Shown here: positions 21,712-58,450 of the stretch, piece after piece
Layout: each line of letters starts with the position of its first letter
Numbering within the stretch: position 1 is the stretch's first letter
Source: Thermoanaerobaculia bacterium
GTDB taxonomy: Bacteria; Acidobacteriota; Thermoanaerobaculia; Gp7-AA8
Assembly: GCA_036506455.1 (NCBI GenBank)
Contig: DASXRT010000062.1
Coordinates: 1 to 63,805, forward strand
Direction: 5' to 3'
DNA: 63,805 nt
Translations under genes and position numbers: made by a program
Notes under the pieces: generated by a model
The model's input: only the letters and a program-made list of their open reading frames with translations
Told to the model about the DNA's origin: nothing
Databases searched by the model: none

Positions 21712-21776
21712 GAGGAATGAGGGATGAGGGATGAGGGATGACCGCGAATCATCCCTCATCCCTCGTCCCTCATCCC
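21712..21776. repeat. heptamer-array hairpin, unit GAGGGAT (4 units, 7-nt loop, 4 complementary units)
   Basis: GAGGAATGAGGGATGAGGGATGAGGGATGA-CCGCGAA-TCATCCCTCATCCCTCGTCCCTCATCCC, immediately after the stop at 21706. Confidence 0.85.
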
Positions 21777-21777
21777 T

Positions 21778-21786
21778 TGTTATAAT
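21778..21786 (+). promoter_or_regulatory. candidate extended -10 promoter element (TGTTATAAT) for the yebC-like gene
   Basis: TGnTATAAT consensus read at 21778-21786, 72 nt upstream of ATG 21858. No good -35. RBS AAGAGGAG at 21840-21847. Confidence 0.4.
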
Positions 21787-21857
21787 CCCGCCCCTCAGCC
21801 GAGGCGTGTGGCGTTCGCCCGTCTCTTTCCAACATACCGCAAGAGGAGCGATCTGGC

Positions 21858-22604
21858 ATGTCAGGCCACAGCAAATGGAGCACGATCAAGCACAAGAAGG
21901 GTGCTGCCGACGCGAAGCGCGGCAAGATCTTCACCCGCATCATCAAGGAAATGTCCGTCGCCGCGCGCCTGGGCGGCGGTGACCCGAATTCGAACCCGCG
22001 CCTCCGTGCGGCCGTCGCTGAAGCCAAGGCGAACAACATGCCGAAGGACAACGTCGAGCGCGCGATCAAGCGCGGTACCGGCGAGCTCGAAGGAGCCACC
22101 TACGAAGAGATTACGTATGAAGGCTACGGTCCCGGCGGCGTCGCCCTCATGGTCGAGACCATGACCGACAACAGCAATCGCACTACGCCGGAGATCCGTC
22201 ACATCTTCGAGAAGAATGGCGGCAACATGGGCTCGCCCGGTTCGGTGCGCTTCCAGTTCGAGCGCAAAGGCTACTTCGCCATCGATAAGAAAGTCGCCGA
22301 CGAAGACAAGCTGATGGAGATCGCTCTCGAGGCCGGAGCCGACGATCTTCGCTCCGACGATCCCGACATCTTCGAGATCTATACCTCGCCCGACAACTTC
22401 GAGCACGTGCGCCAGGCGCTGGAGAAGAACAAGATCCCGACGCTCGAAGCGAAGCTCGGACAGATTCCGAGCAACTACGTGAAGCTCGACGAGAACAAAG
22501 CGAAGCAGATGATGCGGCTGATGGAGATGCTCGACGACCACGACGACGTCCAGAACGTCTGGTCGAACTTCGATATCCCTGAAGAGTTGATGGAGACGGC
22601 GTGA
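21858..22604 (+). CDS. yebC: YebC/PmpR family DNA-binding transcriptional regulator
   Basis: [31 protein letters not shown] and [21 protein letters not shown] match across the full family. Confidence 0.9.
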
Positions 22605-24499: not shown

Positions 24500-25670
24500 T
24501 CACGATCGCCGCGGCCAGCGCCAGTCCCGCTCCCACCGCGAACGCGGCACGCTGCGACACGTGCTGGTAAATCTCACCGAAGATCAGCGAGCCGGCGAGC
24601 ACACCCAGGCCGCTGACGAGATAGTAGATTCCGAAGCCCTTGCCTCTTGCTTCGGCGGGAAGAAAGTCGCTGATCATCGCGCGCTCCGCTCCTTCGCTGA
24701 ATACAAAGGGAAGCGCATAAAAGACGAAGAGCGCGAAGAACGCTGTCACGCTTTGCGCGAAAGGAAAGAAGAAGTACGTGAGGGCGTAAAGCGTCCAGCC
24801 GATGGCGATGACATGCCGGCGCGGGATGCGATCAGAGAGAGCGCCGCCGTGTGTCGACAGCAGTGACTTCACGACATGATGCGCGGACCAAAGCAGGGGA
24901 AGCATGGCCGTGGAAACGCCCGCGACGTGCGCCTGCAGCAGCAGGAACGCATCGCTCGAGTTCGCCAGCGAGAAGAGCGCGATGGCAAAGATCACGCGGT
25001 GGAACGGGCGTCCGAGGGGAGCGGCGGGTTTCAGCCCGCTGTCCGGCGCATTGAAATGCGCCGCTCCACGCTCCGGCTCTTTCAGCAAGAGCAGCAGCAG
25101 CACCACCGCGATCGCGCCGGGGATCACGGCGATGTAGAACATGTGCCGCATCGTCACGCCCATGCCGCTGAGCAGGAGCGTCGCGATCAAGGGCCCGATC
25201 ACGGCGCCCGTGTGATCCATCGCCCGATGAAAGCCGTACGCGCGCCCACGCTGCTCGGGCGGCGTGACGTCGGAGATCATCGCGTCGCGCGGCGCGGAGC
25301 GGATGCCCTTGCCGGTGCGATCGATCAAACGCGCATTCAACACCGTGATCCAGGTCGACGCCGCGCCGATGAGCGCGCGTGACGCCGCGGCCAGCGCGTA
25401 ACCGGTCGCGATCAGCGGCTTGCGGTGCCGGATTCGATCCGACCATGTGCCCGCGACGAATTTCAGAATGGACGCCAGCGCGTCGGCGGCCCCTTCGATC
25501 AACCCGACGGTGACCGGACTTCCGCCGAGCATCGTCGTGATGAAGATCGGCAGCAGCGGATAGATCATCTCGCTCGCCGAGTCGTTCAGCAGCGAGACGA
25601 CGCCGAGGAGGATGACCTGGGGCTGGAGTTTGCGAAGGGTGGCGGGCGATTCAGCGTTCCCCATCAACAT
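24456..25670 (-). CDS. MFS transporter
   Basis: About 12 hydrophobic helices and the loop 2-3 motif DRIRHRKP. 404 aa. Confidence 0.85.
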   Translation of the reverse strand: MLMGNAESPATLRKLQPQVILLGVVSLLNDSASEMIYPLLPIFITTMLGGSPVTVGLIEGAADALASILKFVAGTWSDRIRHRKPLIATGYALAAASRALIGAASTWITVLNARLIDRTGKGIRSAPRDAMISDVTPPEQRGRAYGFHRAMDHTGAVIGPLIATLLLSGMGVTMRHMFYIAVIPGAIAVVLLLLLLKEPERGAAHFNAPDSGLKPAAPLGRPFHRVIFAIALFSLANSSDAFLLLQAHVAGVSTAMLPLLWSAHHVVKSLLSTHGGALSDRIPRRHVIAIGWTLYALTYFFFPFAQSVTAFFALFVFYALPFVFSEGAERAMISDFLPAEARGKGFGIYYLVSGLGVLAGSLIFGEIYQHVSQRAAFAVGAGLALAAAIVITATGTAARTSSSR

Positions 25671-25764
25671 TCAGCATTCCCCATTGACCATTCAACATTC
25701 AACATTCCCGTTTCCCTGAGGTAAAACAAGAACGAGGAATGTTGAATGTCGAATGTTGAATTGC
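25665..25764. repeat. split heptamer-array inverted repeat, unit CAACATT / GAATGTT (6 units, 30-nt spacer, 4 units) in a divergent promoter region
   Basis: Left arm 25665-25706 (CAACATT CAGCATT CCCCATT GACCATT CAACATT CAACATT) includes the MFS start codon. Right arm 25737-25764 (GAATGTT GAATGTC GAATGTT GAATTGC). Confidence 0.75.
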
Positions 25765-36288: not shown

Positions 36289-36338
36289 CGTGAGACCCTC
36301 GATGAAGAAACCGCGGCGCGGAGTTTCCCAGAGAAACA

Positions 36339-36465
36339 GTTGACGCACCACCAGTGATCGATTGGTACCAGAGGCCATCCAGGAGTGATCGGGAGTAAGC
36401 ATCGGAATCGCCTAGCGCGAGCGGCGTGGATGCTGCCGCTTCATCGCCGCGCCGATCCGGGCTTG
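36339..36465 (+). repeat. 127-bp direct repeat, copy R1 (probable IS91-type element end)
   Basis: Differs from 40217-40343 at 5 positions (my by-eye count). The transposase zinc-finger fragment follows downstream. Confidence 0.8.
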
Positions 36466-36517
36466 CCGTATATCGCCCGCGGAATCCTCAATCGACTCCG
36501 TTGTACGGCCCTGCTCG

Positions 36518-36760
36518 ATGAGCGGTACGAGGCGGTCAAAGGGGAGAGGAGCGTTTCGAAACGCGTTTCGGCTTCTCGCGAGGATTCGTCGATGGAGCGG
36601 TGAACCGCTATCTCGATTGCGGCATTCTGGAGAATGGGTTCGCGCGCGTCCGCTGCGGGGATTGCCATAAGGACATGCTCGTGGCCTTCTCGTGCAAGGG
36701 ACGAGGGATCTGCCCAATGCGGCGACGCCAAACGCGCCGCGCAGATGGCGGCGCGGCTGC
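36518..36760 (+). pseudogene. N-terminal fragment of an IS91/IS801-family (Y2, rolling-circle) transposase, zinc-binding region only, frameshifted
   Basis: ERFETRFGFSRGFVDGAVNRYLDCGILENGFARVRCGDCHKDMLVAFSCKGRGICP matches the family N-terminal Zn-binding motif. The continuation CGDAKRAAQMAARL is in another frame. No catalytic Y2 domain follows. Confidence 0.5.
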
Positions 36761-40856: not shown

Positions 40857-40873
40857 ATGGGTGATGGCGAAGG

Positions 40874-44640: not shown

Positions 44641-44720
44641 GGTCGCCGGTCGTGGGTCGTAGGTCGTGGGGGCCTTTTCGCGCTGAGGCCCCCACGACCT
44701 ACGACCCACGACCTACGACC
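44641..44720. repeat. heptamer-array hairpin, unit GGTCGTR (4 units, 16-nt loop, 4 complementary units), copy 1
   Basis: GGTCGCCGGTCGTGGGTCGTAGGTCGTGGGGG-CCTTTTCGCGCTGAGG-CCCCCACGACCTACGACCCACGACCTACGACC. It occupies the whole spacer between the SBP and ATPase genes. Confidence 0.85.
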
Positions 44721-45704: not shown

Positions 45705-45734
45705 GCTAACAGCTAAGAGCTAACAGCTAAGAGC
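45705..45734. repeat. orphan tandem repeat GCTAACAGCTAAGA x2 (heptamers GCTAACA/GCTAAGA)
   Basis: Read directly in the divergent intergenic region 45696-45773. Confidence 0.65.
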
Positions 45735-45773
45735 TTGGTTGTGATACACCAGCGCTCTCACAAGGAGAGTCCC

Positions 45774-45968
45774 ATGGACGACATCGATCGCGACGACGAG
45801 GACGATTACGATGACGAGCAGATCGAGCAGATGATCATCGACAACGGCATCCTTCTGCACAGTCTGGCCACGCTTCTCGTGCGAAAAGGCATCCTCAAAC
45901 AGGAAGAGATCGACTCGGAGATGGACCGCCTCTACGACGAGATGGAAAGCTTCGATCAGCAGAGCTGA
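45774..45968 (+). CDS. small highly acidic hypothetical protein (64 aa)
   Basis: ATG 45774 after AAGGAGAG. Sequence MDDIDRDDEDDYDDEQIEQM..., then a helical C-terminal part. Confidence 0.5.
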   Translation: MDDIDRDDEDDYDDEQIEQMIIDNGILLHSLATLLVRKGILKQEEIDSEMDRLYDEMESFDQQS

Positions 45969-46044: not shown

Positions 46045-47661
46045 ATGAAATCAATCATCCGTACTCTGATTGCCTGCATTGCCTTGGCGATCATCGCCGG
46101 CAGCGCGTTCGCGCAACTTTCGCCGGAGGTTCAGAACTGGGCCAGGGGCCCCGTGCAGTTCATCCTGTCGCCTGAAGAGCAGTCGAAATGGAACCAGATC
46201 AAGACCGACGCCGACGCCAAAGCGTTCATCGATCTGTTCTGGGCTCGCCGCGATCCGACGCCGGGCACGCCGGTCAATGAATATCGCGACAGCTTCGATT
46301 CCGCGGTGAAGTATGCCGACGACCATTTCTCCGAAGGACGTCGCAAAGGATCACTCACCGAGCGCGCCCGCATCCTCATCCTCCTCGGCGCACCGTCGCG
46401 CATCGAGAGAACGGGCGGTTCGGCCTCATCGATCGCCATGCCGGGCGAAGGCACCCGCACGACCGACCAGCAGCAGATCCCGACGCAGATCTGGGTCTAC
46501 GAGACGGGCAAGAGTCCTATTCTCGGAAACCAGCCGTTGCGCGTCGCATTCGCTGATCAGTTCCAGAACAATACGTGGACGCTGCAACGCGGTGGCGGCA
46601 TCGACGTGGCCGATCTGACGCGCCGCTCGCTTCAGGCGACGATCGTGAACCCGAATCTGACAGAGGTGCCGAAACCGCAGGCTGCACCTGCGGCCGAACG
46701 AGCACCCTCTTCGCAGCAATCGCTGCCGACCATGACGCCTGCGGCGGCCAGCATCGGCGCGTTCAAGACCGAATCGCTGAAGACGGCGGTCGAGCAGTTC
46801 AAGACGGCGAAGACGAATCCGTACAAATCCGCCGGCATCACGTACACGGAGCTGCTTTCGCCGACGGGCGATTACTACGTGCCCCTCCAGCTCTACGTCC
46901 CGAAGCCGGCGGGTCTCACCGCCGAGCAGGTGACGACGTTCTTCGGCACGATCGAGGATTCATCAGGGAATGCCGTCGCCATCTTCGAAGAGCCGGCGAC
47001 ACTCTCGACCTCCAACGGTGATCTCTTTTTCGACCGTTCCCTGACGAACTTGAAGCCGGGGACGTACAAAGCGACGCTCGGTCTGTCCGACAAGGACAAC
47101 AAGCCGGTCGTGATGACCACGCAGACGATCGAGCTCAAACCGCTCGCGAAGGAGCAGGCCGGCATCTCCCGGCTCGTGCTCGCCAGCGATGTCCATCAGA
47201 CCGACACGGCCGCGCTGGCCGGCGCGCCGTACGCGTTCGGCCGCGTGAAGATCGTTCCGAAAGGCGATCACGTCTTCTCGAACAAGGATGAGATCACCTA
47301 CTTCGTCGAGGTCGTCAATCCCGGGATCGACCCGGCCACGAACATGCCGAAGCTGCAGGTGAAGCTCGAACTGGTCGGCGCCGGAACGAAGGACAAGCCC
47401 GGCCGCACGATCAGCGCGCCGATCACCGACGCCACGCCGCTACCGCTGACCGGTGCTCCGGGCGTGGGACAGTACGCGATCATGGCCGGCATTCCGCTCG
47501 GCGAGATGAAGACACCGCTTCCTGCCGGCGACTACACGCTGCGCGTGAAGGTCTACGATCAGGTGAGCAAGCAAAGCTGGACGGCGGAGCAGAGTCTGAA
47601 GCTGGCGGCGATTGCGCCGGCGGCTGCGCCCGCCGCAGCAACGACGACGTCGTCGAAGTAA
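46045..47661 (+). CDS. GWxTD-domain secreted protein, paralog 1
   Basis: Signal MKSIIRTLIACIALAIIAGSAFA. FWARRDPTPGTPVNEYRDSF...GSLTERARILILLGAPS is the typical GWxTD-family core. Confidence 0.75.
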   Translation: MKSIIRTLIACIALAIIAGSAFAQLSPEVQNWARGPVQFILSPEEQSKWNQIKTDADAKAFIDLFWARRDPTPGTPVNEYRDSFDSAVKYADDHFSEGRRKGSLTERARILILLGAPSRIERTGGSASSIAMPGEGTRTTDQQQIPTQIWVYETGKSPILGNQPLRVAFADQFQNNTWTLQRGGGIDVADLTRRSLQATIVNPNLTEVPKPQAAPAAERAPSSQQSLPTMTPAAASIGAFKTESLKTAVEQFKTAKTNPYKSAGITYTELLSPTGDYYVPLQLYVPKPAGLTAEQVTTFFGTIEDSSGNAVAIFEEPATLSTSNGDLFFDRSLTNLKPGTYKATLGLSDKDNKPVVMTTQTIELKPLAKEQAGISRLVLASDVHQTDTAALAGAPYAFGRVKIVPKGDHVFSNKDEITYFVEVVNPGIDPATNMPKLQVKLELVGAGTKDKPGRTISAPITDATPLPLTGAPGVGQYAIMAGIPLGEMKTPLPAGDYTLRVKVYDQVSKQSWTAEQSLKLAAIAPAAAPAAATTTSSK

Positions 47662-47666
47662 TTGTC

Positions 47667-47747
47667 AGGTCGTAGGTCGTCGGTCGTAGGTCGTGGGGGC
47701 CTTTTGGCGCTGAAGCCCCCACGACCTACGACCTACGACCCACGACC
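47667..47747. repeat. heptamer-array hairpin, unit GGTCGTR, copy 2 (near-identical core to 44641-44720)
   Basis: AGGTCGTAGGTCGTCGGTCGTAGGTCGTGGGGG-CCTTTTGGCGCTGAAG-CCCCCACGACCTACGACCTACGACCCACGACC, in the same orientation as copy 1. Confidence 0.85.
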
Positions 47748-47754
47748 AAACACC

Positions 47755-48882
47755 ATGATCCGCACGCTGGCCGCACTCCTGATCGCGCTCCCCCTCGCCG
47801 CGCAATCCAATCCACGCGCTTTCGCCAACGGACCGGCGAAGTGGTTGATGACGGCCGACGAGCAGCAGGCCTGGCGAAAGGTCAAGACCGACGACGAGGC
47901 ACGCGATCTCATGGATCTGTTCTTCGCCCGCCGTGATCCGACGCCCGGCACTCCGCGCAACGAGTTCCGAACCGAGTTCGAATCGCGGGTGGCATTCGCG
48001 GACAGGCAATTCAAGGAAGGCGATGTCCGCGGCTCACTCACCGAGCGCGGACGAACTCTCATCGTCCTCGGATTTCCGCGGAACCTGGACGTGCAGGCAT
48101 CGCATCAAAGCAGCCAATCCGGCAACGTACAGGGTTTCGATCCGAACGATCCCACCGGCGGCCGGCAGATGGCGGCGAAAGACGTCTGGACGTACACGCA
48201 CGAAGCGGCAGCGAAGTTCGGCGTTCCGAAGATCGAAGTCGTGTTCATTCATGACTTCACGGGTGATCGCGTGCATCGCGATCCGCAGCGCACCGACTTC
48301 ACGATGGCGCTGCCGGGCGCGATCAGGAGCTACATCGTTTCTCCCGATCTGACGACGGTTCCGGAGTGGGCGGCGTCGCGCCTGACGGACGATCGCACGA
48401 TCGTGCCCGCGCAGGAATCTGCCCAAACGAGTACGACGGAGACGGTGAAGAAGACGCAGACCATCATCGACGCTCCGCGTCCGATTGCCAGGCCCGCTGG
48501 CGCCGGAAAGCTGACGCTGCTCGCGGACACCAATTCGTTGAAACCACAAAGCGGCGCGGATCCCTTCGTGATCGCGTCGCTTGATCACTTCAAAAAGGAT
48601 CAGGACCTCGGCTGGGCTGCCGAATACTGCAGCGGCGTGATCTCGGAGAATGCCCTGCCTGTGAAAGTTCAGTTGAAGCTGGCCGGCAAGGACGGCACGA
48701 TCTCGTCCGATCCCGAAGAATACGTCCCCGATTCGATCAAGGCGTCGCCCGGTTGCTACCTGCTCCGCGGGAGTGTTCCTCTCAGTGACGTCGATCCCGG
48801 CTCATACACGCTGACCGTCGCCATCACCGGCACCGGCGGGCAGCAGAGCTACAATCTCACCCGCGAACTTCGAGTCGAGTAA
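47755..48882 (+). CDS. GWxTD-domain secreted protein, paralog 2
   Basis: ATG 47755 gives the signal MIRTLAALLIALPLAAQ. FFARRDPTPGTPRNEFRTEF...GSLTERGRTLIVLGFP. Confidence 0.75.
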   Translation: MIRTLAALLIALPLAAQSNPRAFANGPAKWLMTADEQQAWRKVKTDDEARDLMDLFFARRDPTPGTPRNEFRTEFESRVAFADRQFKEGDVRGSLTERGRTLIVLGFPRNLDVQASHQSSQSGNVQGFDPNDPTGGRQMAAKDVWTYTHEAAAKFGVPKIEVVFIHDFTGDRVHRDPQRTDFTMALPGAIRSYIVSPDLTTVPEWAASRLTDDRTIVPAQESAQTSTTETVKKTQTIIDAPRPIARPAGAGKLTLLADTNSLKPQSGADPFVIASLDHFKKDQDLGWAAEYCSGVISENALPVKVQLKLAGKDGTISSDPEEYVPDSIKASPGCYLLRGSVPLSDVDPGSYTLTVAITGTGGQQSYNLTRELRVE

Positions 48883-48885
48883 ACC

Positions 48886-50088
<1,203 letters not shown>

Positions 50089-50089
50089 G

Positions 50090-50152
50090 GTGCTGAGTGC
50101 TGAGTGCTGGGTGCTGAGTCCCACCCAGCACTCAGCACCCAGCACTCAGCAC
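50090..50152. repeat. heptamer-array hairpin, unit GTGCTGA (4 units, short loop, 4 complementary units)
   Basis: GTGCTGAGTGCTGAGTGCTGGGTGCTGAGT-CCCA-CCCAGCACTCAGCACCCAGCACTCAGCAC. It fills the ribBA to next-gene spacer. Confidence 0.85.
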
Positions 50153-50154
50153 AT

Positions 50155-50859
50155 ATGACGGCACACACCGGTCCCATCCTTGAAGGCCGCGGCGAGACCG
50201 ATTACGAGCGTTACGTCCGCGTTCCCGAGCTCCTCGAGCTGCAAAAACCGGTCGAGAAGCTCGTCAATCCTGACGAGGCTCTGTTTCAGACAACGCATCA
50301 GGCGGCGGAGCTGTGGCTCAAACAGATCGATTACGAGCTGCACCGCGTGGCCGAGGCGATCGGTCGCGAGCAACTGAACCTTGCCGCGGATCTGCTCGTC
50401 CGTTGCCGCCTGTTGATCGACCTCCTGCGCGAGCAGATCATCATCCTCGAGACGATGGCGCCGGTCGACTACCACGAGTTCCGGGTCGGCGCGCTGGGGC
50501 GGGGGAGTGGGCAGGAGTCGCCCGGATTCAACAAACTGCTCGAGGCGGGAAAGCTGATCTGGCCGCGCTTCGAAGAGCTGCTGCGCAGGCGCTCCGTCAC
50601 CGTGATCGAGATCGAACGCGATCCGCGCACCCACTACGAGGTGTTTCGCCTGATTCAGGCACTGCTCGACTACGACGAAGCATTCATGAAATGGCGATTC
50701 ACGCACATGCGGCTGGCTTTCCGAATCATCGGCTCGAAAGTGCTGTCGCTCAAGGGCGTGCCGGCCGCGCAACTCGAGTCGGGGACACGCGAGCCGCTTT
50801 TCCCCGAGCTGTGGGACACGATCTCGGCGCTCACCAGTGAGTTCAAACCGTCGTACTAG
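50155..50859 (+). CDS. tryptophan 2,3-dioxygenase family protein
   Basis: ATG 50155. DYERYVRVPELLELQKP...DEALFQTTHQAAELWLK matches the TDO helical core. At 234 aa it is shorter than typical KynA. Confidence 0.7.
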   Translation: MTAHTGPILEGRGETDYERYVRVPELLELQKPVEKLVNPDEALFQTTHQAAELWLKQIDYELHRVAEAIGREQLNLAADLLVRCRLLIDLLREQIIILETMAPVDYHEFRVGALGRGSGQESPGFNKLLEAGKLIWPRFEELLRRRSVTVIEIERDPRTHYEVFRLIQALLDYDEAFMKWRFTHMRLAFRIIGSKVLSLKGVPAAQLESGTREPLFPELWDTISALTSEFKPSY

Positions 50860-50864
50860 TGATT

Positions 50865-50943
50865 CGCGGTTGGTCGTTCGTAGTTGGTAGCTGGTGCCTC
50901 CTGCCCAAAGGCATCAGCTACCCGCGACCAACTACCAGCTACG
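50865..50943. repeat. imperfect heptamer-array hairpin (units GGTTGGT CGTTCGT AGTTGGT AGCTGGT / complementary)
   Basis: Left arm 50868-50898, loop about 11 nt, right arm 50910-50943. Several mismatches. Confidence 0.65.
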
Positions 50944-51037
50944 GTTTCTTTCCACCCTAAATGGCTGTCTAACCCACAGCCGTGACGTAAAGTTTTTTTG
51001 AGCGAACTTTTTTCCCTAAGACTTCTGGTTTCAGCGC

Positions 51038-51066
51038 TTGACGGTGAAAAACGCGATCTGTATATT
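51038..51066 (+). promoter_or_regulatory. candidate sigma-70 type promoter of the TPR-TonB-ExbBD operon
   Basis: TTGACG (51038-51043), 17-nt spacer, TATATT (51061-51066), in an unusually AT-rich 215-nt intergenic region about 95 nt upstream of ATG 51160. Confidence 0.5.
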
Positions 51067-51159
51067 CGCCAGCCACATTGCCTGGAGCGGGCCAGCCAAC
51101 AGCCTGACAGCGTCCCGCGGAATCAGTTCGCGAACGACAACCTGGGAGTTCTGAGCTAA

Positions 51160-51984
51160 ATGAAAACGAAGTTGTGCCTTTTCATGGCACTCTCACTTTC
51201 CTTTTTATCCCTCACCAGTTGTCGGAAAGTGGAAGCGCGGATGGAGATCCGCGAAGCGAACAACGCCTACAACCACGAAGACTACAAGGCCGCGCTCGCG
51301 CACTACACGAAGGCGCGACAGATCGATCCGAAGAGCTTTCCCGAGCTGGAGCGGATGATCGGCTACTCCCGTATCGGGATGTACGTTCCGGAAGACAAGT
51401 CGCCGGCCAACGAGAAGAACGCGGACCTGGCCGCGGCCGATCTGCGCCGATATCTGCAGAAGCGTCCCGATGACCGCATCGCCCGCGAGGCGCTGATCAA
51501 TTTGTATCTCAACGCGAACCGCCAGAGCGAAGCGATCAACTACTTCCGCGAATGGCTGAAGACGCATCCCGCCGACATCGAAGCCGTGCGGTCGATCGCC
51601 ACGCTCTATTCGAAGCAGGGGAACTTCAACGAATCGCTGAACTGGTACGAGAAGATCACCCTGCTCGACAAGAACAACCCCGAAGCGTTCTATTTCTACG
51701 GGGTGGTCTGTTTCGACAAAGTGTTAAAGAATCCGCCTGCGGATCCGGCGGAGAAGATGGCCATCATCATGAAAGGCGAAGCGGCATTGCAGCGCGCCAT
51801 CAACATGAGGCCGAATTACGCCGACGCGATCATCTATCTCAGTCTGTTCTATCGCCAGCAGGCGCTCATGGAGACCGATCCAGTCAAGCAGCAAGCCCTG
51901 CTCGCGCAGGCGGACCAGTTGCGAAACAAATACATCGAGATCAAGAAGGCGGAAAAGGCTGCGGCCGCGCAAAAGAAGAGCTAA
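51160..51984 (+). CDS. TPR-repeat lipoprotein
   Basis: Lipobox LSLTSC. TPR-like repeats (YKAALAHYTKARQIDP, NESLNWYEKITLLDKNNPEAFY). Confidence 0.7.
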   Translation: MKTKLCLFMALSLSFLSLTSCRKVEARMEIREANNAYNHEDYKAALAHYTKARQIDPKSFPELERMIGYSRIGMYVPEDKSPANEKNADLAAADLRRYLQKRPDDRIAREALINLYLNANRQSEAINYFREWLKTHPADIEAVRSIATLYSKQGNFNESLNWYEKITLLDKNNPEAFYFYGVVCFDKVLKNPPADPAEKMAIIMKGEAALQRAINMRPNYADAIIYLSLFYRQQALMETDPVKQQALLAQADQLRNKYIEIKKAEKAAAAQKKS

Positions 51985-51990
51985 CCGACA

Positions 51991-52725
51991 ATGTTCGAAA
52001 CCACAGTCGTCGAGTCGCGCAAACACAGGGCCGGGATCCAGAAGTACATGACGCTCCCGGTTTCCATCGCGCTGCACGTGATCGTCATCGCCGGCACGCT
52101 CTTCGGCGCCATCTGGACCGTCGATTTTCCGAACAACTCGCCGGCGCAGGTCGCGCAATATTCGGTTGCCGCTGCCCCGCCGCCCCCGCCCCCTCCACCG
52201 CCCCCACCCAAAGCCGCTCCGAAAGTCGAGCCGGTCAAGCCGGTCGAAGTTCCCAAGGACATTCAGAACCTCGCGCCTACTGTGGTGCCCGATCAGATCA
52301 AGCCGGTCGAGACGCCGGCGACCGTTCAGGGTGCCTCGAGTGGTGTGGAAGGGGGGGTGGAAGGCGGCGTGGAGGGCGGTGTCGTCGGCGGTGTCGTCGG
52401 CGGCGTCATCACCGACACGGCGCCGAAACCGGAGGTGCCGCTGCGCGTCGGCGGCGATGTGAAGGCGCCGGTGGTCATCACCCGCGTCGAGCCGACGTAT
52501 CCGGAGGTGGCGCGCAAGGCGCGCATCGCCGGCATCGTCATCGTGGAGTGCATCATCGACAAGACCGGCAACGTCACGAACGTGCAGGTGCTCAAGCCGC
52601 TGCCGTTCGGCCTCGATCAAGCCGCGGTCGACGCGGTGAAGCGCTGGAAGTTCAAACCGGGGACGCTCAACGGCCAGCCGGTCGATGTCATCTTCAACCT
52701 GACCGTCAACTTCAAACTGAATTAA
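51991..52725 (+). CDS. tonB: energy transducer TonB
   Basis: N-terminal TM, Pro-rich linker (P x12, KAAPKVEPVKPVE), and a C-terminal TonB_C domain (YPEVARKARIAGIVIVECIIDKTGNV...AVKRWKFKPG). Confidence 0.85.
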   Translation: MFETTVVESRKHRAGIQKYMTLPVSIALHVIVIAGTLFGAIWTVDFPNNSPAQVAQYSVAAAPPPPPPPPPPPKAAPKVEPVKPVEVPKDIQNLAPTVVPDQIKPVETPATVQGASSGVEGGVEGGVEGGVVGGVVGGVITDTAPKPEVPLRVGGDVKAPVVITRVEPTYPEVARKARIAGIVIVECIIDKTGNVTNVQVLKPLPFGLDQAAVDAVKRWKFKPGTLNGQPVDVIFNLTVNFKLN

Positions 52726-52776
52726 AGAAACGCGCGTCCGGCCGTGAGGCCGGATTCGCGATGGAGGAACCACACC

Positions 52777-53472
52777 ATGGATATGAGTCCCACCGCGTTA
52801 TGGCATTCGATGGGCAACATGGCCAAGGGCGTCGTCTTCGTCTTGCTCATCATGTCGATCTACTCGATCTGGGTCATGGTCGAGCGCTACCTGGTCTTCA
52901 CGAAGGCGAAGAATCAGTCGGTCAAGCTCCTCGGAGCGCTGTCGAACCTTCTGACGCGCGGAGACTACGGTCAGGCCATCGAGGTCACGAAGAAGTACAA
53001 GGACAGCCATCTGGCGAAGGTCATTGCCGCCGGTCTTCTCGAGTTCGAAGCGACGCGCCGTGACAAACGGACCGGCGATATCGAGGTGGCCGTCGAAGCG
53101 GCCCGACAGGGCATGGACCGCACGGCCATGATCACCGTCGCTGAGATGAAAGAGAATCTCGGCGTGCTCGCGACGATCGGTGCCACCGCGCCCTTCGTCG
53201 GACTGTTCGGAACCGTCATCGGGATCATCAACGCGTTCGGCAAGATGGCTACTTCCGGTGGCGGCATCGCCTCGGTTTCGGCCGGTATCGCCGAAGCTCT
53301 CGTCACGACGGCGTTCGGTCTGTTCGTCGCGATTCCCGCGGTTTGGGCCTACAACTACTTCCAGAACCGCATCGACCGCTTCACTGTCGAGATGTCCAAC
53401 TCCGGCTCGGAGATGTCCATCTACTTCATGAAGGAAGCGGGGGCCGCGCATGATAAGTCATCGGTGGCATAG
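52777..53472 (+). CDS. exbB: MotA/TolQ/ExbB proton-channel protein
   Basis: ATG 52777 after GGAGGA. Conserved LATIGATAPFVGLFGTVIGII and AEALVTTAFGL. Confidence 0.9.
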   Translation: MDMSPTALWHSMGNMAKGVVFVLLIMSIYSIWVMVERYLVFTKAKNQSVKLLGALSNLLTRGDYGQAIEVTKKYKDSHLAKVIAAGLLEFEATRRDKRTGDIEVAVEAARQGMDRTAMITVAEMKENLGVLATIGATAPFVGLFGTVIGIINAFGKMATSGGGIASVSAGIAEALVTTAFGLFVAIPAVWAYNYFQNRIDRFTVEMSNSGSEMSIYFMKEAGAAHDKSSVA

Positions 53473-53899
53473 CTCAGTCGGCAAGTTTCAGAAGGCGGCG
53501 ATGAACTCGGAGATCAACGTCACTCCGCTTGTCGACGTGTGTCTCGTGCTGCTGATCATCTTCATGGTCGTCACGCCCATGCTGCAGAAAGGCGTGCCGA
53601 TCAACCTGCCGGTCACCGAAGAGCCGGAACGGACGCCCGACACCGAGAAGCAGCTCCAGATCTCGGTCAAAGCCGACGGCTCGGTCTATCTAGGCTCGAG
53701 CGTCGTGCGCAAAGATCAGGTGCAGTCCGAATTGGAACAGATCCATCAGCGCACTCCCGATCGCGAGATCGCCGTCAAGGGCGACAAGATGGTGAAGTAC
53801 GGCGACGTTCTCGACGTCCTGAAAGCCTGTCGTGAGGTCGGCTTCAACGATGTCGGTCTCATCGCCCAGCCGAAGAAGGCGCCCGGTCAAGGAACATAA
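53450..53899 (+). CDS. exbD: ExbD/TolR family protein 1
   Basis: EINVTPLVDVCLVLLIIFMV is the motif. Alternative start ATG 53501. Confidence 0.85.
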   Translation: MISHRWHSSVGKFQKAAMNSEINVTPLVDVCLVLLIIFMVVTPMLQKGVPINLPVTEEPERTPDTEKQLQISVKADGSVYLGSSVVRKDQVQSELEQIHQRTPDREIAVKGDKMVKYGDVLDVLKACREVGFNDVGLIAQPKKAPGQGT

Positions 53900-53902
53900 C
53901 CC

Positions 53903-54316
53903 ATGCAAGTAGGTGGCAGCGGTACCGTCAAATCCGACATCAACGTCACGCCGCTCGTCGACGTTGTGCTTGTGCTTCTGATCATCTTCATGGTCATCAC
54001 GCCCGTCGTGCAGATGGGTTACCTGGTGCGCGTTCCGCCGAAGGCGCCGTCGAACCTTCCTCCCTCGGCGATTCAGGATCAGATCGTCCTGCGCCTCGCG
54101 GCGAACAATCGCGTCTTCATCAACAAGGAAGAGATGACCATGGAGCAGTTCCCGAATCGCATTCGCGACATCCTCAAAGGGAACACCAGCAAGATGGTGT
54201 TTTTCTCCGGCGGCCGCGATGTCGACTACGAATCCACGATGACGTTCCTCGACCTCGCCCGCGCCAGCGGCTGCAAGAACATCGGCATCATCGTCGAGGA
54301 CGTGGCGCAGCAGTAG
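53903..54316 (+). CDS. exbD: ExbD/TolR family protein 2
   Basis: DINVTPLVDVVLVLLIIFMV is the motif. Confidence 0.85.
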   Translation: MQVGGSGTVKSDINVTPLVDVVLVLLIIFMVITPVVQMGYLVRVPPKAPSNLPPSAIQDQIVLRLAANNRVFINKEEMTMEQFPNRIRDILKGNTSKMVFFSGGRDVDYESTMTFLDLARASGCKNIGIIVEDVAQQ

Positions 54317-54321
54317 GTGTA

Positions 54322-54402
54322 GGGCCGGTTTCTCGACCGGCCCGTCCGGCGTTTCGCAACCCGCCGGTTTAATAAGCCGGCGCCTACCGCATTTTTGTTT
54401 TT
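54322..54402 (+). terminator. two hairpins after exbD2, the second followed by a T-rich tract
   Basis: GGGCCGG-TTTCTCGA-CCGGCCC (54322-54343). CGCCGG-loop-CCGGCG (54362-54382), then ATTTTTGTTTTT (54390-54401). Confidence 0.45.
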
Positions 54403-54640
54403 CCCTCACCATTTTCGTAGGTATGGACTTACGTACCAACGTCACCCCATAGGCAACAGCCAAATCGTTTCCTATCTCTCGGCATCCGGCGCGGCAACAA
54501 CGCTTGATCTGTCTGGCGACAGCGTTCATCCGTCGGCATACGACGGTAGCGTACCGGGGGAAAGCCTCGTCTTGCCGCGCCCCTCCGATCCTCTTACGCA
54601 AGCGTCCTCTCTCACAACAACCAGTTTGATGGAGGTGCTC

Positions 54641-56023
54641 ATGACTCGACGGGTCGTCCCGTTAGCGTTACTTCTTTGTCTGACTTTTTCTCTCCAGGAT
54701 TTTGCGCAAACCGATCCCGGAGTCCGTGGTGGCGCGCCAGGCGCAGGTCAGCCGCTGGCGTCAGTCGCCGCGAACAATCCGGCCAACATCCTCAACTTCT
54801 TCAATGCCGGTAAAGACGACTTCCAGGAGATCGACTCGGTTTCCGGAACGGTGGCCGGCGAGGAGGGTTCCGGTCTCGGTCCTCGCTACAACTCCAGAAG
54901 TTGCGTCGCGTGTCACGCACAGCCGGCGGTCGGCGGTACGGCTCCGGCGGTCAATCCCGAGATTGCCGACGCGACGGCCGATGGAGCGCGGAATACCATT
55001 CCCTCGTTCATCACGGTCAACGGACCGGTGCGCGAGGCGCGTTTCCCGTTCTTCTTCACCAATGGTGTGCCCGATGTCAATCGTCCCAATGGTGGCGTCG
55101 AAGATCTGTACACGATCACAGGGCGCATAGATGCTGGCAGTTGCACGATCTCGCAGCCCAGCTTCGCGACAGCGGTGGCCACCAACAACGTGATTTTCCG
55201 GATTCCCACTCCAACGTTCGGGTCCGGGCTGATCGAGAACATCGAGGAATCGACCCTGCTCGCCAACGCGGCCGCAAACCTGAACAACAACTTCGGGGTC
55301 ACCGGTACGTTCAACCGCGAGGGCAACACCGGGACGATCACTCGCTTCGGTTGGAAAGCGCAGAACAAGTCGCTGGAGATCTTCGCCGGCGAGGCTTACC
55401 TCGTCGAGATGGGGGTGGCCAACGAACTGTTCACGCAGGAGCGTCCGCTTCCGGGTGAGGGCATGAACCAGGGTCTGCCAGCGGCGTGCAAGATCAATCC
55501 GACGCCGGAAGACATCACGCATTTTGACGGAGTGAGCGAGGGAGTCATGAGCGACACCGTCGCGTTCGCAATGTTCATGCGGCTCCTGGCACCGCCCACG
55601 CCCTCGACGACGACACCCGGCGGAGCGACTTCGATTGCCAACGGGCGAAATCTGTTCAGCGCCGTCGGCTGCGCGACATGCCACACGCCGACGATTCGGA
55701 CCACAGCCTCGAAGTTCACACCCAGTCTGAGTAACGCGAACGCGAATCTATTCAGCGATCTCGAGATTCATCACATGGGGACGGAACTGGCAGACAACGT
55801 CTCGCAGGGTGGCGCGGGTGGTGATGAGTTCCGGACTGCTCCACTGTGGGGTGCCGGACAGCGGATCTTTTTCCTTCATGACGGCCGGACGAGGAATCTG
55901 CGGAACGCGATCCTCGCCCATAACAGCCCCGGCTCGGAGGCCAATACTTCGTCGTTCATCTTTTTCAACAACCTGTCAGCAGCTCAGCAGCAAGACGTCC
56001 TGAATTTCTTACGGTCGTTGTAG
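54641..56023 (+). CDS. DUF1111-family di-haem cytochrome c oxidoreductase (peroxidase-like), secreted
   Basis: ATG 54641 after GGAGG. Signal MTRRVVPLALLLCLTFSL. Two CXXCH motifs (CVACH, CATCH). Confidence 0.8.
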   Translation: MTRRVVPLALLLCLTFSLQDFAQTDPGVRGGAPGAGQPLASVAANNPANILNFFNAGKDDFQEIDSVSGTVAGEEGSGLGPRYNSRSCVACHAQPAVGGTAPAVNPEIADATADGARNTIPSFITVNGPVREARFPFFFTNGVPDVNRPNGGVEDLYTITGRIDAGSCTISQPSFATAVATNNVIFRIPTPTFGSGLIENIEESTLLANAAANLNNNFGVTGTFNREGNTGTITRFGWKAQNKSLEIFAGEAYLVEMGVANELFTQERPLPGEGMNQGLPAACKINPTPEDITHFDGVSEGVMSDTVAFAMFMRLLAPPTPSTTTPGGATSIANGRNLFSAVGCATCHTPTIRTTASKFTPSLSNANANLFSDLEIHHMGTELADNVSQGGAGGDEFRTAPLWGAGQRIFFLHDGRTRNLRNAILAHNSPGSEANTSSFIFFNNLSAAQQQDVLNFLRSL

Positions 56024-56039
56024 GTCTTGCGCTTCCGCA

Positions 56040-56067
56040 GGCCGTTGATGCGCGAACATCAACGGCC
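56040..56067 (+). terminator. 11-bp stem hairpin after the DUF1111 gene
   Basis: GGCCGTTGATG-CGCGAA-CATCAACGGCC, with only a weak T tract after it. Confidence 0.4.
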
Positions 56068-56092
56068 TGCCCCTTTGGGAAAAAGGAGGAAC

Positions 56093-57121
56093 ATGTTCCG
56101 TCGCGAATTCTTGCAACCGGTGTTCCTGTGCTTGTCACTGTTTCTGATCGGATCTCGAAACGTCGCCGCGCAAACGCCGCCCGAACAAGCCTTACCGAAC
56201 GGCGGTGACTTTGCGCCAATGCCGGCCGGCAAACTGCCTACCGGAGTGATTCTCGTGAAAGGCGCGGAGCCGAGTGCGAGCGATCGCGCCACTCCTCTGC
56301 CCGAAGAGGGCCGCGTCGCTCGAAATGTTTATCAGAACCGTTACCTCGGTCTCACCTATCCGCTGCCGCCCGACTGGATGGAGGCTGTCCAGGGTCCGCC
56401 ACCCTCGGACAGAGGCGGCTATGTTCTGGCTCAACTGATCCCAGCGGCGACGTTCAAACGTCCAACTAAAGGGACGGTGCTGATCTCTGCACAGGACATG
56501 TTTTTCGTCCACGCGCCCGCCGGCAATGCACTGGAGATGATCAAGTTCAGCAAGGAACACCTGCAGCCCTACTACGAAGTGGAACGTTCACCAACCGAAG
56601 TCACGATCGCCGGCCATTCGTTCGCGCGCTTCGATTACGTGTCACACGTCGCGCAATTGCATTGGTACGTGCTGGCCACGCAGATCCGGTGTCACACCAT
56701 TCAGTTCGTCTTCACCGGTCAGGATGTCGAGATGCTCGAGAGCCTCATCGGCGACATGAACCGCATGACGTTGCCGGCGGAGGCGGGAGCCACGTCAGGA
56801 AGAGGCGGAGGAGACTCTCCGGTCTGCGTTCAGAACTACGCCTTGGCGAAGAACATCGAGTACAGGACCGATCCGATCTTCGACGTCCGCCGGTTCAATC
56901 CTGTTCCGGTGCGGATCGTCATCGACAAGAAGGGCGCTGTGCGTCACGTCCACGTCATCAGCGCTTTCTCCGATCAAGCCACGAAGATCACCGAGGCGCT
57001 CCTGCAGTGGAAGTTCAAGCCATACGTTCAGGACGGCAAAGCCGTCGAAGTGGAGACCGGGATCATGTTCGGATCTCGAGATGGAATCACTGCGATTCCG
57101 AGCTCGACGAGCCTCGACTGA
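56093..57121 (+). CDS. secreted protein with C-terminal TonB_C-like domain
   Basis: ATG 56093 after AGGAGG. Signal MFRREFLQPVFLCLSLFLIGSRNVAA. C-terminal VRIVIDKKGAVRHVHVISAF..ALLQWKFKPYVQDGKAVEVE. Confidence 0.6.
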   Translation: MFRREFLQPVFLCLSLFLIGSRNVAAQTPPEQALPNGGDFAPMPAGKLPTGVILVKGAEPSASDRATPLPEEGRVARNVYQNRYLGLTYPLPPDWMEAVQGPPPSDRGGYVLAQLIPAATFKRPTKGTVLISAQDMFFVHAPAGNALEMIKFSKEHLQPYYEVERSPTEVTIAGHSFARFDYVSHVAQLHWYVLATQIRCHTIQFVFTGQDVEMLESLIGDMNRMTLPAEAGATSGRGGGDSPVCVQNYALAKNIEYRTDPIFDVRRFNPVPVRIVIDKKGAVRHVHVISAFSDQATKITEALLQWKFKPYVQDGKAVEVETGIMFGSRDGITAIPSSTSLD

Positions 57122-57613
57122 TCACGAAGGCGATGCGGGGAGAGCGGCGGCCTCGGCCGCCGCTTTCTTTTTGCGGAGCCGCTCTTCGATCCGCAGCAGG
57201 GCATCGAGCGAAAATCGTCCGCCGCCGATGAGCACGAGCGCCGCGCATCCCGCGAAGAGAGACAATGGCATCTCGATTCCCTTCATCGCCTCGAAGAATC
57301 TGTTCGCGCCCGGCTGCGCGCCGTTCAGGGCATCGGGGAGTTGCACGACGGCCACTGCCACTGCCATTGTGCAGCCGAGGAGGAAGGCATCGAGACGGGT
57401 GAGAAGGCCGGCGATGAGCAGAATCGCGCCGAAGAACTCGGCGTAGGCGGCGATGTACCCGAGGAAGGCGGGGATGTGATAGCCGGGAAGATCGGCAGCG
57501 AAGGAGGCCACGCCGCCGGAGCCGAAGACCTTCGAGTAACCATGAGGGATGAAGATCAGGCCGATCGCTATGCGCAGAATGAGCGCGGCGATGTCGCCGG
57601 CGTGCTTCGTCAT
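57122..57613 (-). CDS. DoxX-family membrane protein
   Basis: LILRIAIGLIFIPHGYSKVF and four hydrophobic helices. Confidence 0.85.
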   Translation of the reverse strand: MTKHAGDIAALILRIAIGLIFIPHGYSKVFGSGGVASFAADLPGYHIPAFLGYIAAYAEFFGAILLIAGLLTRLDAFLLGCTMAVAVAVVQLPDALNGAQPGANRFFEAMKGIEMPLSLFAGCAALVLIGGGRFSLDALLRIEERLRKKKAAAEAAALPASPS

Positions 57614-58384
57614 GACCGGATCGTCACTCCTCTCGCGCTATTCGTATCGTTCTATCTTGCCATATTCTGGATCGGCCTCTCGATCCGCATCCCGTTCTTT
57701 CAGTGGATCGGATTGATCAGTGCCTGCTGCGCGACCGTGGCGACAATTGCGCTCTGGTATCACGGCCGATGGGATCTCGGACTCCGCGCCGCGCCGCGCG
57801 ATGCGGCGCGTGAACTTTTGTTCGGGATTCTGTTCGCCGTCGCGCTGATCGGCACGGCCGACGTTCTCATCGTCGCGCTCACGCCGCTTCGACACGTGCG
57901 CGGCCATGGATTTCCGGTGGTCGAGACGATCACGGTGTTCATTCCGGCCGCGCTTCATGAAGAGCTGCTGTTTCGCGGTTATCCCTATCAGTTGTTGCGT
58001 TGTTGGAAGCGCTGGTTTGCCATCGCGTCGTCGTCAGTCGTTTTCGCCGCGCTCCACGCGCGCAACTCCGATGTCACCGCGCTTGCACTGCTGAACATCT
58101 TCATCGGCGGCATCGTGCTGGCGCTCGCATATGAGCGCTATCGGCGGCTCTGGATGCCCATCGGCCTGCATTTCGCCTGGAACATGATGTCCGGACCGAT
58201 CCTGGGATACGAGGTCAGTGGATTCGCAGCGCGGGAGTCGCTGTTGACGACGATGGTCATAGGACCGCCTCTGGTGACGGGTGGTGGGTTTGGGATCGAG
58301 GGGAGCATCGTCATGACCGTGGTCGAAGTTGCGGCGATCGCCCTTCTGTGGAGAGGACGAGGAATGTTGAATGTTGAATGTTGA
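57602..58384 (+). CDS. CPBP-family intramembrane glutamic endopeptidase (CAAX/Abi type); start uncertain
   Basis: EELLFRGYPY (EExxxR), FAALHARN (FxxxH) and HFAWN (HxxxN). The GTG 57602 start would overlap the divergent doxX start by 12 nt. The last 8 codons lie in the hairpin arm. Confidence 0.7.
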   Translation: MLRHDRIVTPLALFVSFYLAIFWIGLSIRIPFFQWIGLISACCATVATIALWYHGRWDLGLRAAPRDAARELLFGILFAVALIGTADVLIVALTPLRHVRGHGFPVVETITVFIPAALHEELLFRGYPYQLLRCWKRWFAIASSSVVFAALHARNSDVTALALLNIFIGGIVLALAYERYRRLWMPIGLHFAWNMMSGPILGYEVSGFAARESLLTTMVIGPPLVTGGGFGIEGSIVMTVVEVAAIALLWRGRGMLNVEC

Positions 58385-58450
58385 ATGCTAAATGTTGAAT
58401 GTTGCGCGGGGAATTCAACATTCAACATTCAACATTCAACATTCAGCATT
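58361..58450. repeat. heptamer-array hairpin, unit TGAATGT/ACATTCA (6 units, 7-nt loop, about 5 complementary units)
   Basis: GGAATGTTGAATGTTGAATGTTGAATGCTAAATGTTGAATGTTG-CGCGGGG-AATTCAACATTCAACATTCAACATTCAACATTCAGCATT. Same unit as 25665-25764. Confidence 0.85.

Follow-up and report, generated by a model that had tools for sequence, protein, structure and literature searches.

Seven hairpins built from tandem units of seven nucleotides (heptamers) are present in a 63,805-nt contig of a Thermoanaerobaculia bacterium (GenBank assembly GCA_036506455.1, contig DASXRT010000062.1; the whole stretch, positions 1 to 63,805, is referred to as the window). They follow one plan, namely about four 7-nt units in tandem, then a loop (3-31 nt), then the reverse-complement units, and they are the paired form of a known heptamer-repeat class, now in an uncultured soil lineage of the Acidobacteriota. 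Comparison with close strains and relatives revealed changes by whole units, arms tracking each other, unit drift with compensation and copying to a new site. At two junctions, ribBA/tryptophan 2,3-dioxygenase (TDO) and Rce1/thiolase, a hairpin of some kind is kept despite full turnover of its sequence. With a probability of roughly 60%, we attribute these heptamer repeat palindromes to slippage of units combined with arm-to-arm correction, the products being tolerated, or put to use, at the boundaries of cistrons as RNA stem-loops independent of sequence.

Heptamer repeats have been noticed for decades in cyanobacteria, Xanthomonas, Geobacter and Beggiatoaceae; their origin and function are not agreed upon and the reports have never been joined up. 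The initial annotation of the window, made from the letters alone, knew of no description of the class. Yet published work covers an excess of heptamers, a preference for four units, inverted pairs in convergent orientation and genomes with several unit classes (PMC4692102, PMC2700814, PMC4679880), and an RNase III-cleaved heptamer-repeat RNA hairpin has been characterised experimentally (PMC12721329). New in this study are the host phylum, the whole-unit differences between strains, the persistence of hairpins with compensated drift of their units, and the copy of an element inserted between a stop and a start codon that previously abutted. No report of heptanucleotide repeats in Acidobacteria came up in a literature search.

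Seven hairpins of tandem heptamers

Direct reading of the sequence confirmed all seven hairpins at the coordinates given in the initial annotation. A scan for periodic runs returned 13 runs of period 7 in the window, compared with none at periods 4, 5, 6, 8, 10 and 11, two at period 9 and one at period 12. In 100 dinucleotide shuffles of the window the mean number of period-7 runs was 0.06 and the maximum 1, bearing out the anticipated excess over shuffled sequence. Arrays of three or more head-to-tail 7-nt copies that exceed both the chance expectation and the numbers at other periods are the mark of long simple sequence repeats (LSSR) and short tandemly repeated repetitive (STRR) sequences. 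An inverted partner accompanies ten of the 13 runs, and the 25 longest inverted repeats of the window all lie in the seven hairpin loci, except for one pair at 9267-9323. Folded as RNA, the seven elements reach -37.8 to -77.2 kcal/mol (z -5.2 to -11.7), and for each of them 0 of 200 shuffles folded as well as the native hairpin. The predicted stems are near-perfect and 28-38 bp long, which satisfies the double-stranded RNA length of at least about 20 bp known from RNase III-processed hairpins; transcription of the hairpins is assumed from their position inside operons.

Together with four unpaired arrays (see below) the hairpins make up 11 elements, nine of them intergenic, and about eight unit types occur within 37 kb. 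That every locus has a different unit, as had been supposed, was overstated: GGTCGTR, GAATGTT and ACCGACA are found at two loci each, and hairpins 3 and 4 have a 26-nt core, GGGGGCCTTTTSGCGCTGARGCCCCC, in common. Two hairpins, 2 and 6, are clearly degenerate, with arms 73-79% complementary. The G/T-rich arm comes first in six of the seven window hairpins (five of the six scored by the scan, plus hairpin 6, which was read directly). At all seven loci two arrays of about four units form an inverted repeat near the ends of open reading frames (ORFs), as in the convergent pairs of Xanthomonas.

The same hairpins were recovered in independent JGI, ENA, NCBI and Logan assemblies and are therefore not assembly artefacts. 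One independently assembled contig, L204, begins inside hairpin 1 (its position 1 is window 21759); the palindromes evidently break short-read assemblies. The odd peptides MGRRSWGP.., MLGAECW.. and MRDEGMRDD.., suspected to be bogus N-terminal extensions, proved to be six-frame readings of hairpin arms. At gathering thresholds Rfam recognised a tRNA in the window and nothing else, and a permissive Rfam scan around hairpin 6 returned just a chance microRNA-like match to the hairpin itself. Exact-protein look-ups for the Bmp and thiolase proteins gave no match. Pfam domains and the nearest genomes assign the window to the Thermoanaerobaculia (Acidobacteriota).

U-rich tracts come after hairpins 1, 6 and 7, and the spacers there are longer. 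Hairpin 1 (21711-21778, no strand assigned; arms 21711-21741 and 21749-21777) consists of GAGGGAT x4.4, a 7-nt loop and ATCCCTC x4 (-55.2 kcal/mol, z -9.3). The element begins 5 nt past a BNR-like gene's stop; TTGTTATAAT comes after it, and the YebC start lies 80 nt further. Among the seven hairpins GGG tracts occur here only (four tracts); the Xanthomonas-type G-tract unit GGGNATC, able to form a G-quadruplex, is not characteristic of the window hairpins. Hairpin 6 (50864-50944, + strand; arms 50871-50905 and 50909-50942, 73-79% complementary) has degenerate 7-nt-periodic arms, GGTTGGT CGTTCGT AGTTGGT AGCTGGT and their complement (-43.2 kcal/mol, z -5.2). It is situated past the dioxygenase stop, precedes the conserved U-rich GGTTTCTTTCC and lies upstream of the conserved promoter of the next operon. 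Hairpin 7 (58361-58452, + strand; arms 58362-58404 and 58413-58450) is made of GAATGTT x6, an 8-nt loop and AACATTC x5 (-49.4 kcal/mol, z -8.7). As noticed previously, its first three units (58361-58384) provide the Rce1-like gene with its last codons and its TGA; downstream are TTTCGCTTTTGAGGAG and then the thiolase start.

Hairpins 3, 4 and 5 have no such tail and abut the next start codon. Hairpin 3 (44641-44720, - strand; arms 44641-44675 and 44686-44720) has GGTCGTR x4 per arm around the core GGGGGCC-TTTTCGCGCTGA-GGCCCCC (-77.2 kcal/mol, z -11.7). It is indeed, as first described, the whole spacer between the stop of the Bmp substrate-binding gene (44721-44723) and the ATG of the ABC ATPase gene (44637-44639), its stem being 0 nt from the former and 1 nt short of the latter; the ATPase start was placed by alignment with the start called in relatives. 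Hairpin 4 (47663-47752, + strand; arms 47663-47700 and 47715-47752) likewise has GGTCGTR x4 per arm, with the core GGGGGCC-TTTTGGCGCTGA-AGCCCCC (-68.2 kcal/mol, z -10.4); it begins 1 nt past the stop of the GWxTD gene and ends 2 nt ahead of the next ATG. Hairpin 5 (50090-50152, + strand; arms 50090-50119 and 50123-50152) consists of GTGCTGR x4, a short loop and YCAGCAC x4 (-52.8 kcal/mol, z -8.3) and extends from 1 nt past the ribBA stop to 2 nt ahead of the TDO ATG. Independent JGI gene calls concur with the starts downstream of hairpins 4 and 5.

Hairpin 2 (25665-25764, no strand assigned) is placed between divergent MFS (- strand) and 3-hydroxyacyl-CoA dehydrogenase (+ strand) genes and is alone in the window in having the A/C-rich arm first. 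A degenerate CAACATT-type arm of about six units is followed by a loop of 26-31 nt and GAATGTT x3.6 (-37.8 kcal/mol, z -7.0); the paired arms, 25676-25713 and 25724-25761, are 74% complementary, the left one being degenerate. The GAATGTT-type hairpins 2 and 7 have a 14-nt variant end in common, CAACATTCAGCATT (window 25665-25680 and 58436-58450); in hairpin 2 it forms the outer 5' end of the A/C-rich arm, in hairpin 7 the outer 3' end. Although their arm orders are opposite, the two hairpins might thus descend from one source.

Whole units differ between near-identical strains

Contig L081 is 99.2% identical to window 46108-58912 (12.8 kb). About 60 of the 105 differing alignment columns fall in or beside four hairpins, which occupy about 2.5% of the length. 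Hairpin 4 has one unit more in each arm than in the window (5+5 versus 4+4) and hairpin 7 has one unit less in the left arm (5+5 versus 6+5), so that 7-nt indels at two loci constitute a whole-unit copy-number polymorphism; the arms of a hairpin remain equal to within one unit. Such differences fit the generating mechanism with slippage put forward in the initial annotation. Hairpin 6 shows three small changes. In hairpin 5 the unit is changed in every copy of both arms (GTGCTCR/CGAGCAC versus GTGCTGR/YCAGCAC in the window), and the resulting allele is that of lineage L205. Across the ribBA/TDO tract (L081 3970-4100, window 50076-50181) codons 2-9 of the dioxygenase carry seven consecutive synonymous third-position changes on one flank of the hairpin, and a stop codon is changed from TGA to TAG. 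In strain L203, hairpin 1 differs by a single base, A21716G, which repairs an A-C mismatch.

Orthologous spacers keep hairpins and exchange units

Relatives with RibBA identities of 87-95% were fetched and compared. The ribBA/TDO spacer contains GTGCTGA units in the window, GTGCTCR or GTCCTGA elsewhere, and in L207 a mixed GTGCTGA/GTCCTGA intermediate; in other lineages it is occupied by a non-periodic perfect palindrome, GC hairpins or REP-like palindromes (repetitive extragenic palindromic, REP). Among four alleles 95% of cells are paired, both sides are changed in five of 21 pairs, and the covariation score is 0.286 against 0.134. In L002 (11205-11972) this spacer measures about 770 nt, with the REP-like palindromes GCCCGCTACGCGGGC and GCCCGCGTAGCGGGC replacing the heptamer arrays. 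The Rce1/thiolase spacer carries a hairpin in every relative examined, made of GAATGTT, of GAATGCA/GAATTCA/GAATGAA, of GCAGAAT or, in one relative, of the 8-mer GTCTCAAA. Orthologous spacers thus hold hairpins of different units, one of them with 8-mers, in line with the original observation that the architecture is kept and the sequence is not. In the spacer between the GWxTD gene and the next gene the GGTCGTR unit is present in all four lineages and the hairpin 4 core in three, the element forming a series of about 2+2 (core lost), 3+3, 4+4 and 5+5 units.

Other sites are filled in some lineages and empty in others. The TDO/TPR site of hairpin 6 is empty in L205, L206 and L209-L212; L207/L208 and L003 have other units there (GTTGACC in L207, another one in L003). 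The empty sites, which belong to two clades, retain the U-rich tail seen after hairpin 6, preceded by a small hairpin. The Bmp/ABC site of hairpin 3 is empty in all relatives, stop and start overlapping or being 0-3 nt apart, which makes hairpin 3 a recent copy of an element of the hairpin 4 type. L207 has an extra hairpin between the stop of ECH (enoyl-CoA hydratase) and the AccC start, with the GTCCTGA unit of its own ribBA/TDO spacer; in the window the ECH and AccC genes overlap. Among the fetched loci, the 26-nt core of hairpins 3 and 4 was found elsewhere only in orthologous hairpin 4 sites. At the two insertions for which empty sites allow a comparison, a target-site duplication is not evident, apart from a possible 4-nt GGTT flanking hairpin 6. 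Together with the roughly eight unit types in 37 kb, this speaks against an origin from one or two ordinary families of dispersed repeats that leave target-site duplications, a derivation the initial annotation had also disfavoured.

Heptamer arrays in other genomes and metagenomes

The scan for periodic runs also covered 1.26 Mb of sequence surrounding ribBA in 80 diverse genomes; there period-7 runs were more numerous than those of any other period, and inverted partners were found only for 7-mers and two 8-mers. A metagenome scan for three GGTCGTN units gave at least 120 matching stretches, 80 loci among which were examined. The loci among the matches listed range from 42 to 74% G+C; many of them have neighbouring arrays of other heptamers and several form hairpins. 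Heptamer arrays are therefore common in environmental bacteria, and the class is probably under-annotated. The modal array length is four units in every set, the detection threshold lowering the count of three-unit arrays. Over all sets 24 of 32 hairpins begin with the G/T-rich arm (p = 0.007), a count consisting mostly of GGTCGT-type hairpins and hence incompletely independent. Some of the metagenome contigs L145 (8797-8990), L100, L146, L153 and L157 have composite palindromes whose arms of about 85 nt comprise several heptamer arrays of different kinds in series; in other contigs of that set two or three arrays of different units are directly juxtaposed.

Two further regularities were considered and given up. 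That the G/T-rich arm always carries a stop, which would place stops in all three frames in both directions, applies to 11 of 13 arrays in the window, but to only 8 of 24 and 17 of 59 in other sets, and was dropped as a general rule. The orientation of arrays relative to flanking genes showed a weak excess of A/C-rich sense arrays upstream (67 versus 44), which depends on crude longest-ORF calls and is too noisy.

Unpaired arrays and neighbouring features of the window

Tandem Repeats Finder and direct reading added four unpaired arrays that were absent from the initial annotation. ACCGACA x4.3 (35118-35147, + strand) lies in the 3' tail of a biotin carboxylase ORF, 38 nt upstream of the next ATG, and contains a stop codon in no frame. 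GGCCTCG x3.1 (40126-40147, no strand assigned) is located between divergent KAP NTPase and M23 peptidase genes. A degenerate array read directly from the sequence (45617-45647, - strand; ACCGAAA/ACCGACA on that strand, TTTCGGT-like on the other) encodes the linker following the lipobox cysteine of the Bmp lipoprotein. The fourth, GCTAACA/GCTAAGA x4.4 (45705-45735, no strand assigned), directly precedes the conserved TTGTGATACAC motif and a 64-aa ORF that is likewise conserved; at its site relatives have TTCTGCC x3 (L207) or a CTACCGA-type array (L210/L212). Two of these four arrays are in coding sequence, and their units are free of stop codons in any frame.

The conserved motif TTGTGATACAC/GTGGTACAC (window 45736-45968; L001 8060-8110; L207 8111-8175) precedes the acidic 64-aa ORF at 45774-45968, which has no Pfam match. 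Directly upstream of the motif each lineage has a heptamer array, with a unit that differs by lineage. Downstream of hairpin 6, window 51038-51148 contains a strongly conserved promoter-like site (TTGACG, 17 nt, TATATT) and then a leader of about 80 nt, both conserved in all seven lineages aligned. The leader, a possible cis-regulatory element without an Rfam match, extends to GGGAGTTC and, near 51146, an ATG upstream of the TPR/TonB/ExbB/ExbD operon. The true start of the TPR gene is probably this ATG and not 51160.

The block 35185-41500, comprising a beta-propeller gene, unknown ORFs, the GGCCTCG array, the M23 peptidase gene and that of a 969-aa KAP P-loop NTPase (37068-39977, - strand), is seemingly missing from relatives such as L207, in which the biotin carboxylase gene leads directly to the ABC transporter operon. 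It is a possible variable island. A tandem repeat with a period of 27 nt (15119-15198; 2.9 copies, 72% matches) occurs near the 5' end of a 500-aa ORF with a spermidine synthase domain.

Relation to known repeats

Heptamers are the commonest unit size of long repeats in many genomes (Mrazek 2007, as summarised in PMC4679880 and PMC4692102). GGGAATC in Xanthomonas and GGGGAYT in Nostoc are tandem intergenic heptamers with a clear four-unit preference (Rehm et al. 2015, PMC4692102). Each Xanthomonas genome contains 70-75 convergent array pairs, i.e. inverted repeats; in related species the same genes flank the arrays, length and sequence vary, and the repeats have the same strand polarity relative to ORFs (PMC4692102). 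In both genera one unit type is dominant per genome, and the repeats were read as G-quadruplex formers (PMC4692102). The window has intergenic tandem heptamers and the four-unit preference in common with them, and the GAGGGAT of hairpin 1 is nearly the same unit. Unlike them, it belongs to another phylum and has about eight mostly non-G-tract units, and the symmetric strain-level unit changes seen here were not reported in that study. Because these eight or so units have the same architecture, the four-unit preference is not quadruplex-driven.

In Geobacter metallireducens, classes 1-3 consist of three to five tandem 7-9-nt units paired with an opposite-strand copy at variable distance (Aklujkar et al. 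2009, PMC2700814). Several unit classes occur in that one genome, some sites lie within operons, e.g. proB/proA, the sister species is without them, and they have been annotated as binding sites for unknown global regulators (IHF/HU) (PMC2700814). Paired tandem 7/8-mers of several classes are found there as in the window; the G. metallireducens classes comprise 8-24 near-identical pairs each, larger families than any in the window, and a comparison of populations and orthologues is available only here. The TAACTGA arrays of Beggiatoaceae are tandem intergenic heptamers oriented relative to start codons (MacGregor, PMC4679880), and several unit types make up the STRR heptamers of cyanobacteria, the Calothrix repeats being cited in PMC4692102. 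Both resemble the window elements in being intergenic and patchy across phyla and differ from them in being mostly unpaired direct arrays, the Guaymas genome having one inverted set of 170.

In the hmw 5' untranslated region of Haemophilus influenzae a transcribed (ATCTTTC)n array is one arm of a long RNA hairpin; its cleavage by RNase III alters expression, the structure matters and not the sequence, and the repeat number varies (PMC12721329). Expression and change of repeat number require transcription, folding and RNase III, and the study argues that the repeat-number change does not depend on polymerase slippage (PMC12721329). This hairpin is the sole experimentally tested working model for such structures. 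It is unlike those of the window in that its other arm is a G-rich stretch and not the reverse-complement array, that it has at least 11 units, and that it is a single locus in a 5' untranslated region, away from stop/start junctions, serving adhesin phase variation.

REP sequences and REPINs are likewise intergenic palindromes at 3' ends and inside operons which spread within genomes. They differ in having a conserved family sequence, a GTAG head and a cognate RAYT (REP-associated tyrosine transposase), and in lacking an internal 7-nt periodicity. The window elements have no consensus across loci, no GTAG head and at most two copies per unit type. A REP between malE and malF stabilises the upstream message of the binding-protein gene, a position paralleled by that of hairpin 3 after the Bmp binding-protein gene.

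Origin and possible action of the palindromes

In the model that we favour, slippage would add and remove whole units in the arrays. The arms would be kept matched, likeliest by templated correction (quasi-palindrome template switching or gene conversion) and possibly also by selection for pairing. Single-base variants of a unit would spread to both arms, so that the unit would drift and the palindrome stay, and occasionally a whole element would be copied to another intergenic site. No sequence would have to be recognised; the transcript is predicted to fold into its near-perfect stem-loop of 28-38 bp whatever the unit. At hairpins 1, 6 and 7, with their U-rich tracts, the stem is probably a terminator or protects the 3' end. 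At hairpins 3, 4 and 5 the stem base would bring the stop and the next start codon together, and the stem would be long enough as a substrate of RNase III. These three hairpins would set the relative expression of cistrons by processing, by protection of the upstream 3' end, and by making downstream initiation dependent on the upstream ribosome melting the stem base. The role as terminators, attenuators or mRNA-stabilising structures proposed in the initial annotation is accordingly retained as plausible for hairpins 1, 6 and 7. As a single role it does not fit all, because three hairpins are tail-less and run from stop to start and one lies between divergent genes. Since unpaired arrays exist, as does hairpin 2 between divergent genes, the repeat-generating process appears to be independent of usefulness.

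Several points weigh against this model. We infer every functional step of the hairpins, and the model does not account for a period of exactly 7. Covariation is no proof of an RNA role, because arm-to-arm copying at the DNA level alone can give compensating changes. Hairpins 3 and 6 are dispensable, as close relatives live without them. The ribBA/TDO difference between strains is probably a short recombination tract of some 100 bp with the hairpin in its centre, rather than a change in place, since it is flanked by seven consecutive synonymous differences; this suggests that hairpins may be recombination break points. A consensus scan for canonical hairpins with T-tails (terminators/promoters, 43-59 kb) called none of the hairpins, and sites were not enriched. 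The missing Shine-Dalgarno motif beside hairpins 3-5, considered as evidence for coupling, had to be discarded as uninformative, because about half of the relatives' genes lack such a motif. In Xanthomonas no regulatory effect of the repeats was found (PMC4692102). Finally, a DNA-only model of origin is possibly incomplete, because the change of repeat number in Haemophilus is ascribed to transcription, RNA folding and RNase III.

Among the alternatives, neutrality is possible and, in our judgement, clearly less probable than tolerated or used stem-loops. The elements would then be by-products of a quirk of replication or repair (7-nt slippage plus palindrome formation) that survive where they are harmless, i.e. 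in spacers, ORF tails and protein linkers. Their hypervariability, their presence or absence among close relatives and their occurrence in all contexts, a divergent promoter region and coding sequence among them, are all consistent with this. So are the lack of stop codons in arrays inside ORFs, the failure to find a role in Xanthomonas (PMC4692102) and the wide distribution of arrays, one arbitrary unit having at least 120 stretches, with the listed loci spanning 42-74% G+C. Neutrality does not easily explain the hairpin present at ribBA/TDO and Rce1/thiolase in every lineage examined despite complete turnover, the biased arm order (with the same polarity relative to ORFs in Xanthomonas), or the way in which hairpin 6 takes the place of a stem at a conserved terminator-like site. 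Arm-order bias, persistence and the placement of hairpin 6 suggest some selective filter. We regard as rather unlikely that the hairpins are non-autonomous mobile elements, similar to MITEs (miniature inverted-repeat transposable elements) or REPINs, which a remote transposase would move by recognising the hairpin shape or the terminal arrays, lineage-specific families arriving at the same permissive sites. Their arms are inverted repeats as in MITEs, and hairpin 3 is a lineage-specific insertion with the hairpin 4 unit and the 26-nt core. The TDO/TPR site is either filled or empty, its boundaries are sharp and its units differ by lineage, and units recur within a genome and differ between genomes (GGTCGTR, GAATGTT and ACCGACA twice each in the window, GTCCTGA at two loci in L207). 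Against mobility stand the lack of an evident target-site duplication at either comparable insertion (at most the 4-nt GGTT at hairpin 6), of a conserved terminal motif among some eight unrelated unit types in 37 kb, of a known related insertion sequence, and of a transposase or RAYT domain in a Pfam scan of the 58 ORFs of the window. Orthologous change, moreover, is gradual, with single-base unit steps, mixed arrays and unit-number series, which argues for evolution in place and not for replacement.

Two explanations tied to particular sequences carry far less weight. The units might be operators for a DNA-binding protein that reads contiguous 7-8-bp units; candidates are ribbon-helix-helix repressors such as omega of pSM19035, whose sites are heptads in direct and inverted order, and MetJ, whose sites are tandem 8-bp boxes, or else IHF/HU. 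The paired 7-/8-mer sites of G. metallireducens, annotated as binding sites of a global regulator such as IHF/HU, and the 45705 array just upstream of a conserved promoter-like motif would suit this idea. Operators of ribbon-helix-helix proteins consist of one fixed unit at promoters; here about eight unrelated units in 37 kb could not be read by one sequence-specific protein, the units change between strains, and most elements come after stop codons and not at promoters. The operator reading is very improbable and was rejected on unit diversity. More improbable still is the reading as G-quadruplexes or i-motifs, a proposal made for GGGAATC and GGGGAYT. Hairpin 1, with GAGGGAT x4, four GGG tracts and its proximity to the Xanthomonas and Nostoc units, would qualify; the other six hairpins and the four unpaired arrays have no G-tracts and yet the same four-unit architecture, and a duplex stem competes in every hairpin. 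As a general explanation quadruplexes are ruled out by the unit sequences.

A bolder extension of our model, which we hold to be improbable and somewhat less so than the operator reading, would make the palindromes a widespread self-renewing class of elements. Such a class would be defined by periodicity and symmetry, made and matched by a conserved property of replication, repair or transcription with RNase III, and used as stop-to-start bridges. A stem reaching from the stop to the next start would hold the two codons side by side whatever the unit number, and would keep translational coupling or set cistron ratios without a Shine-Dalgarno sequence.

Implications

The window shows that the paired four-unit architecture is independent of G-quadruplex potential, and the series of strains and lineages displays unit gain, mirrored gain, compensated drift, copying and loss. 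In practical terms, the elements break assemblies and create false N-terminal extensions and false ORFs. Should bridging or RNase III processing be true, the heptamer repeat palindromes would provide a simple, sequence-free tuning of expression within operons.

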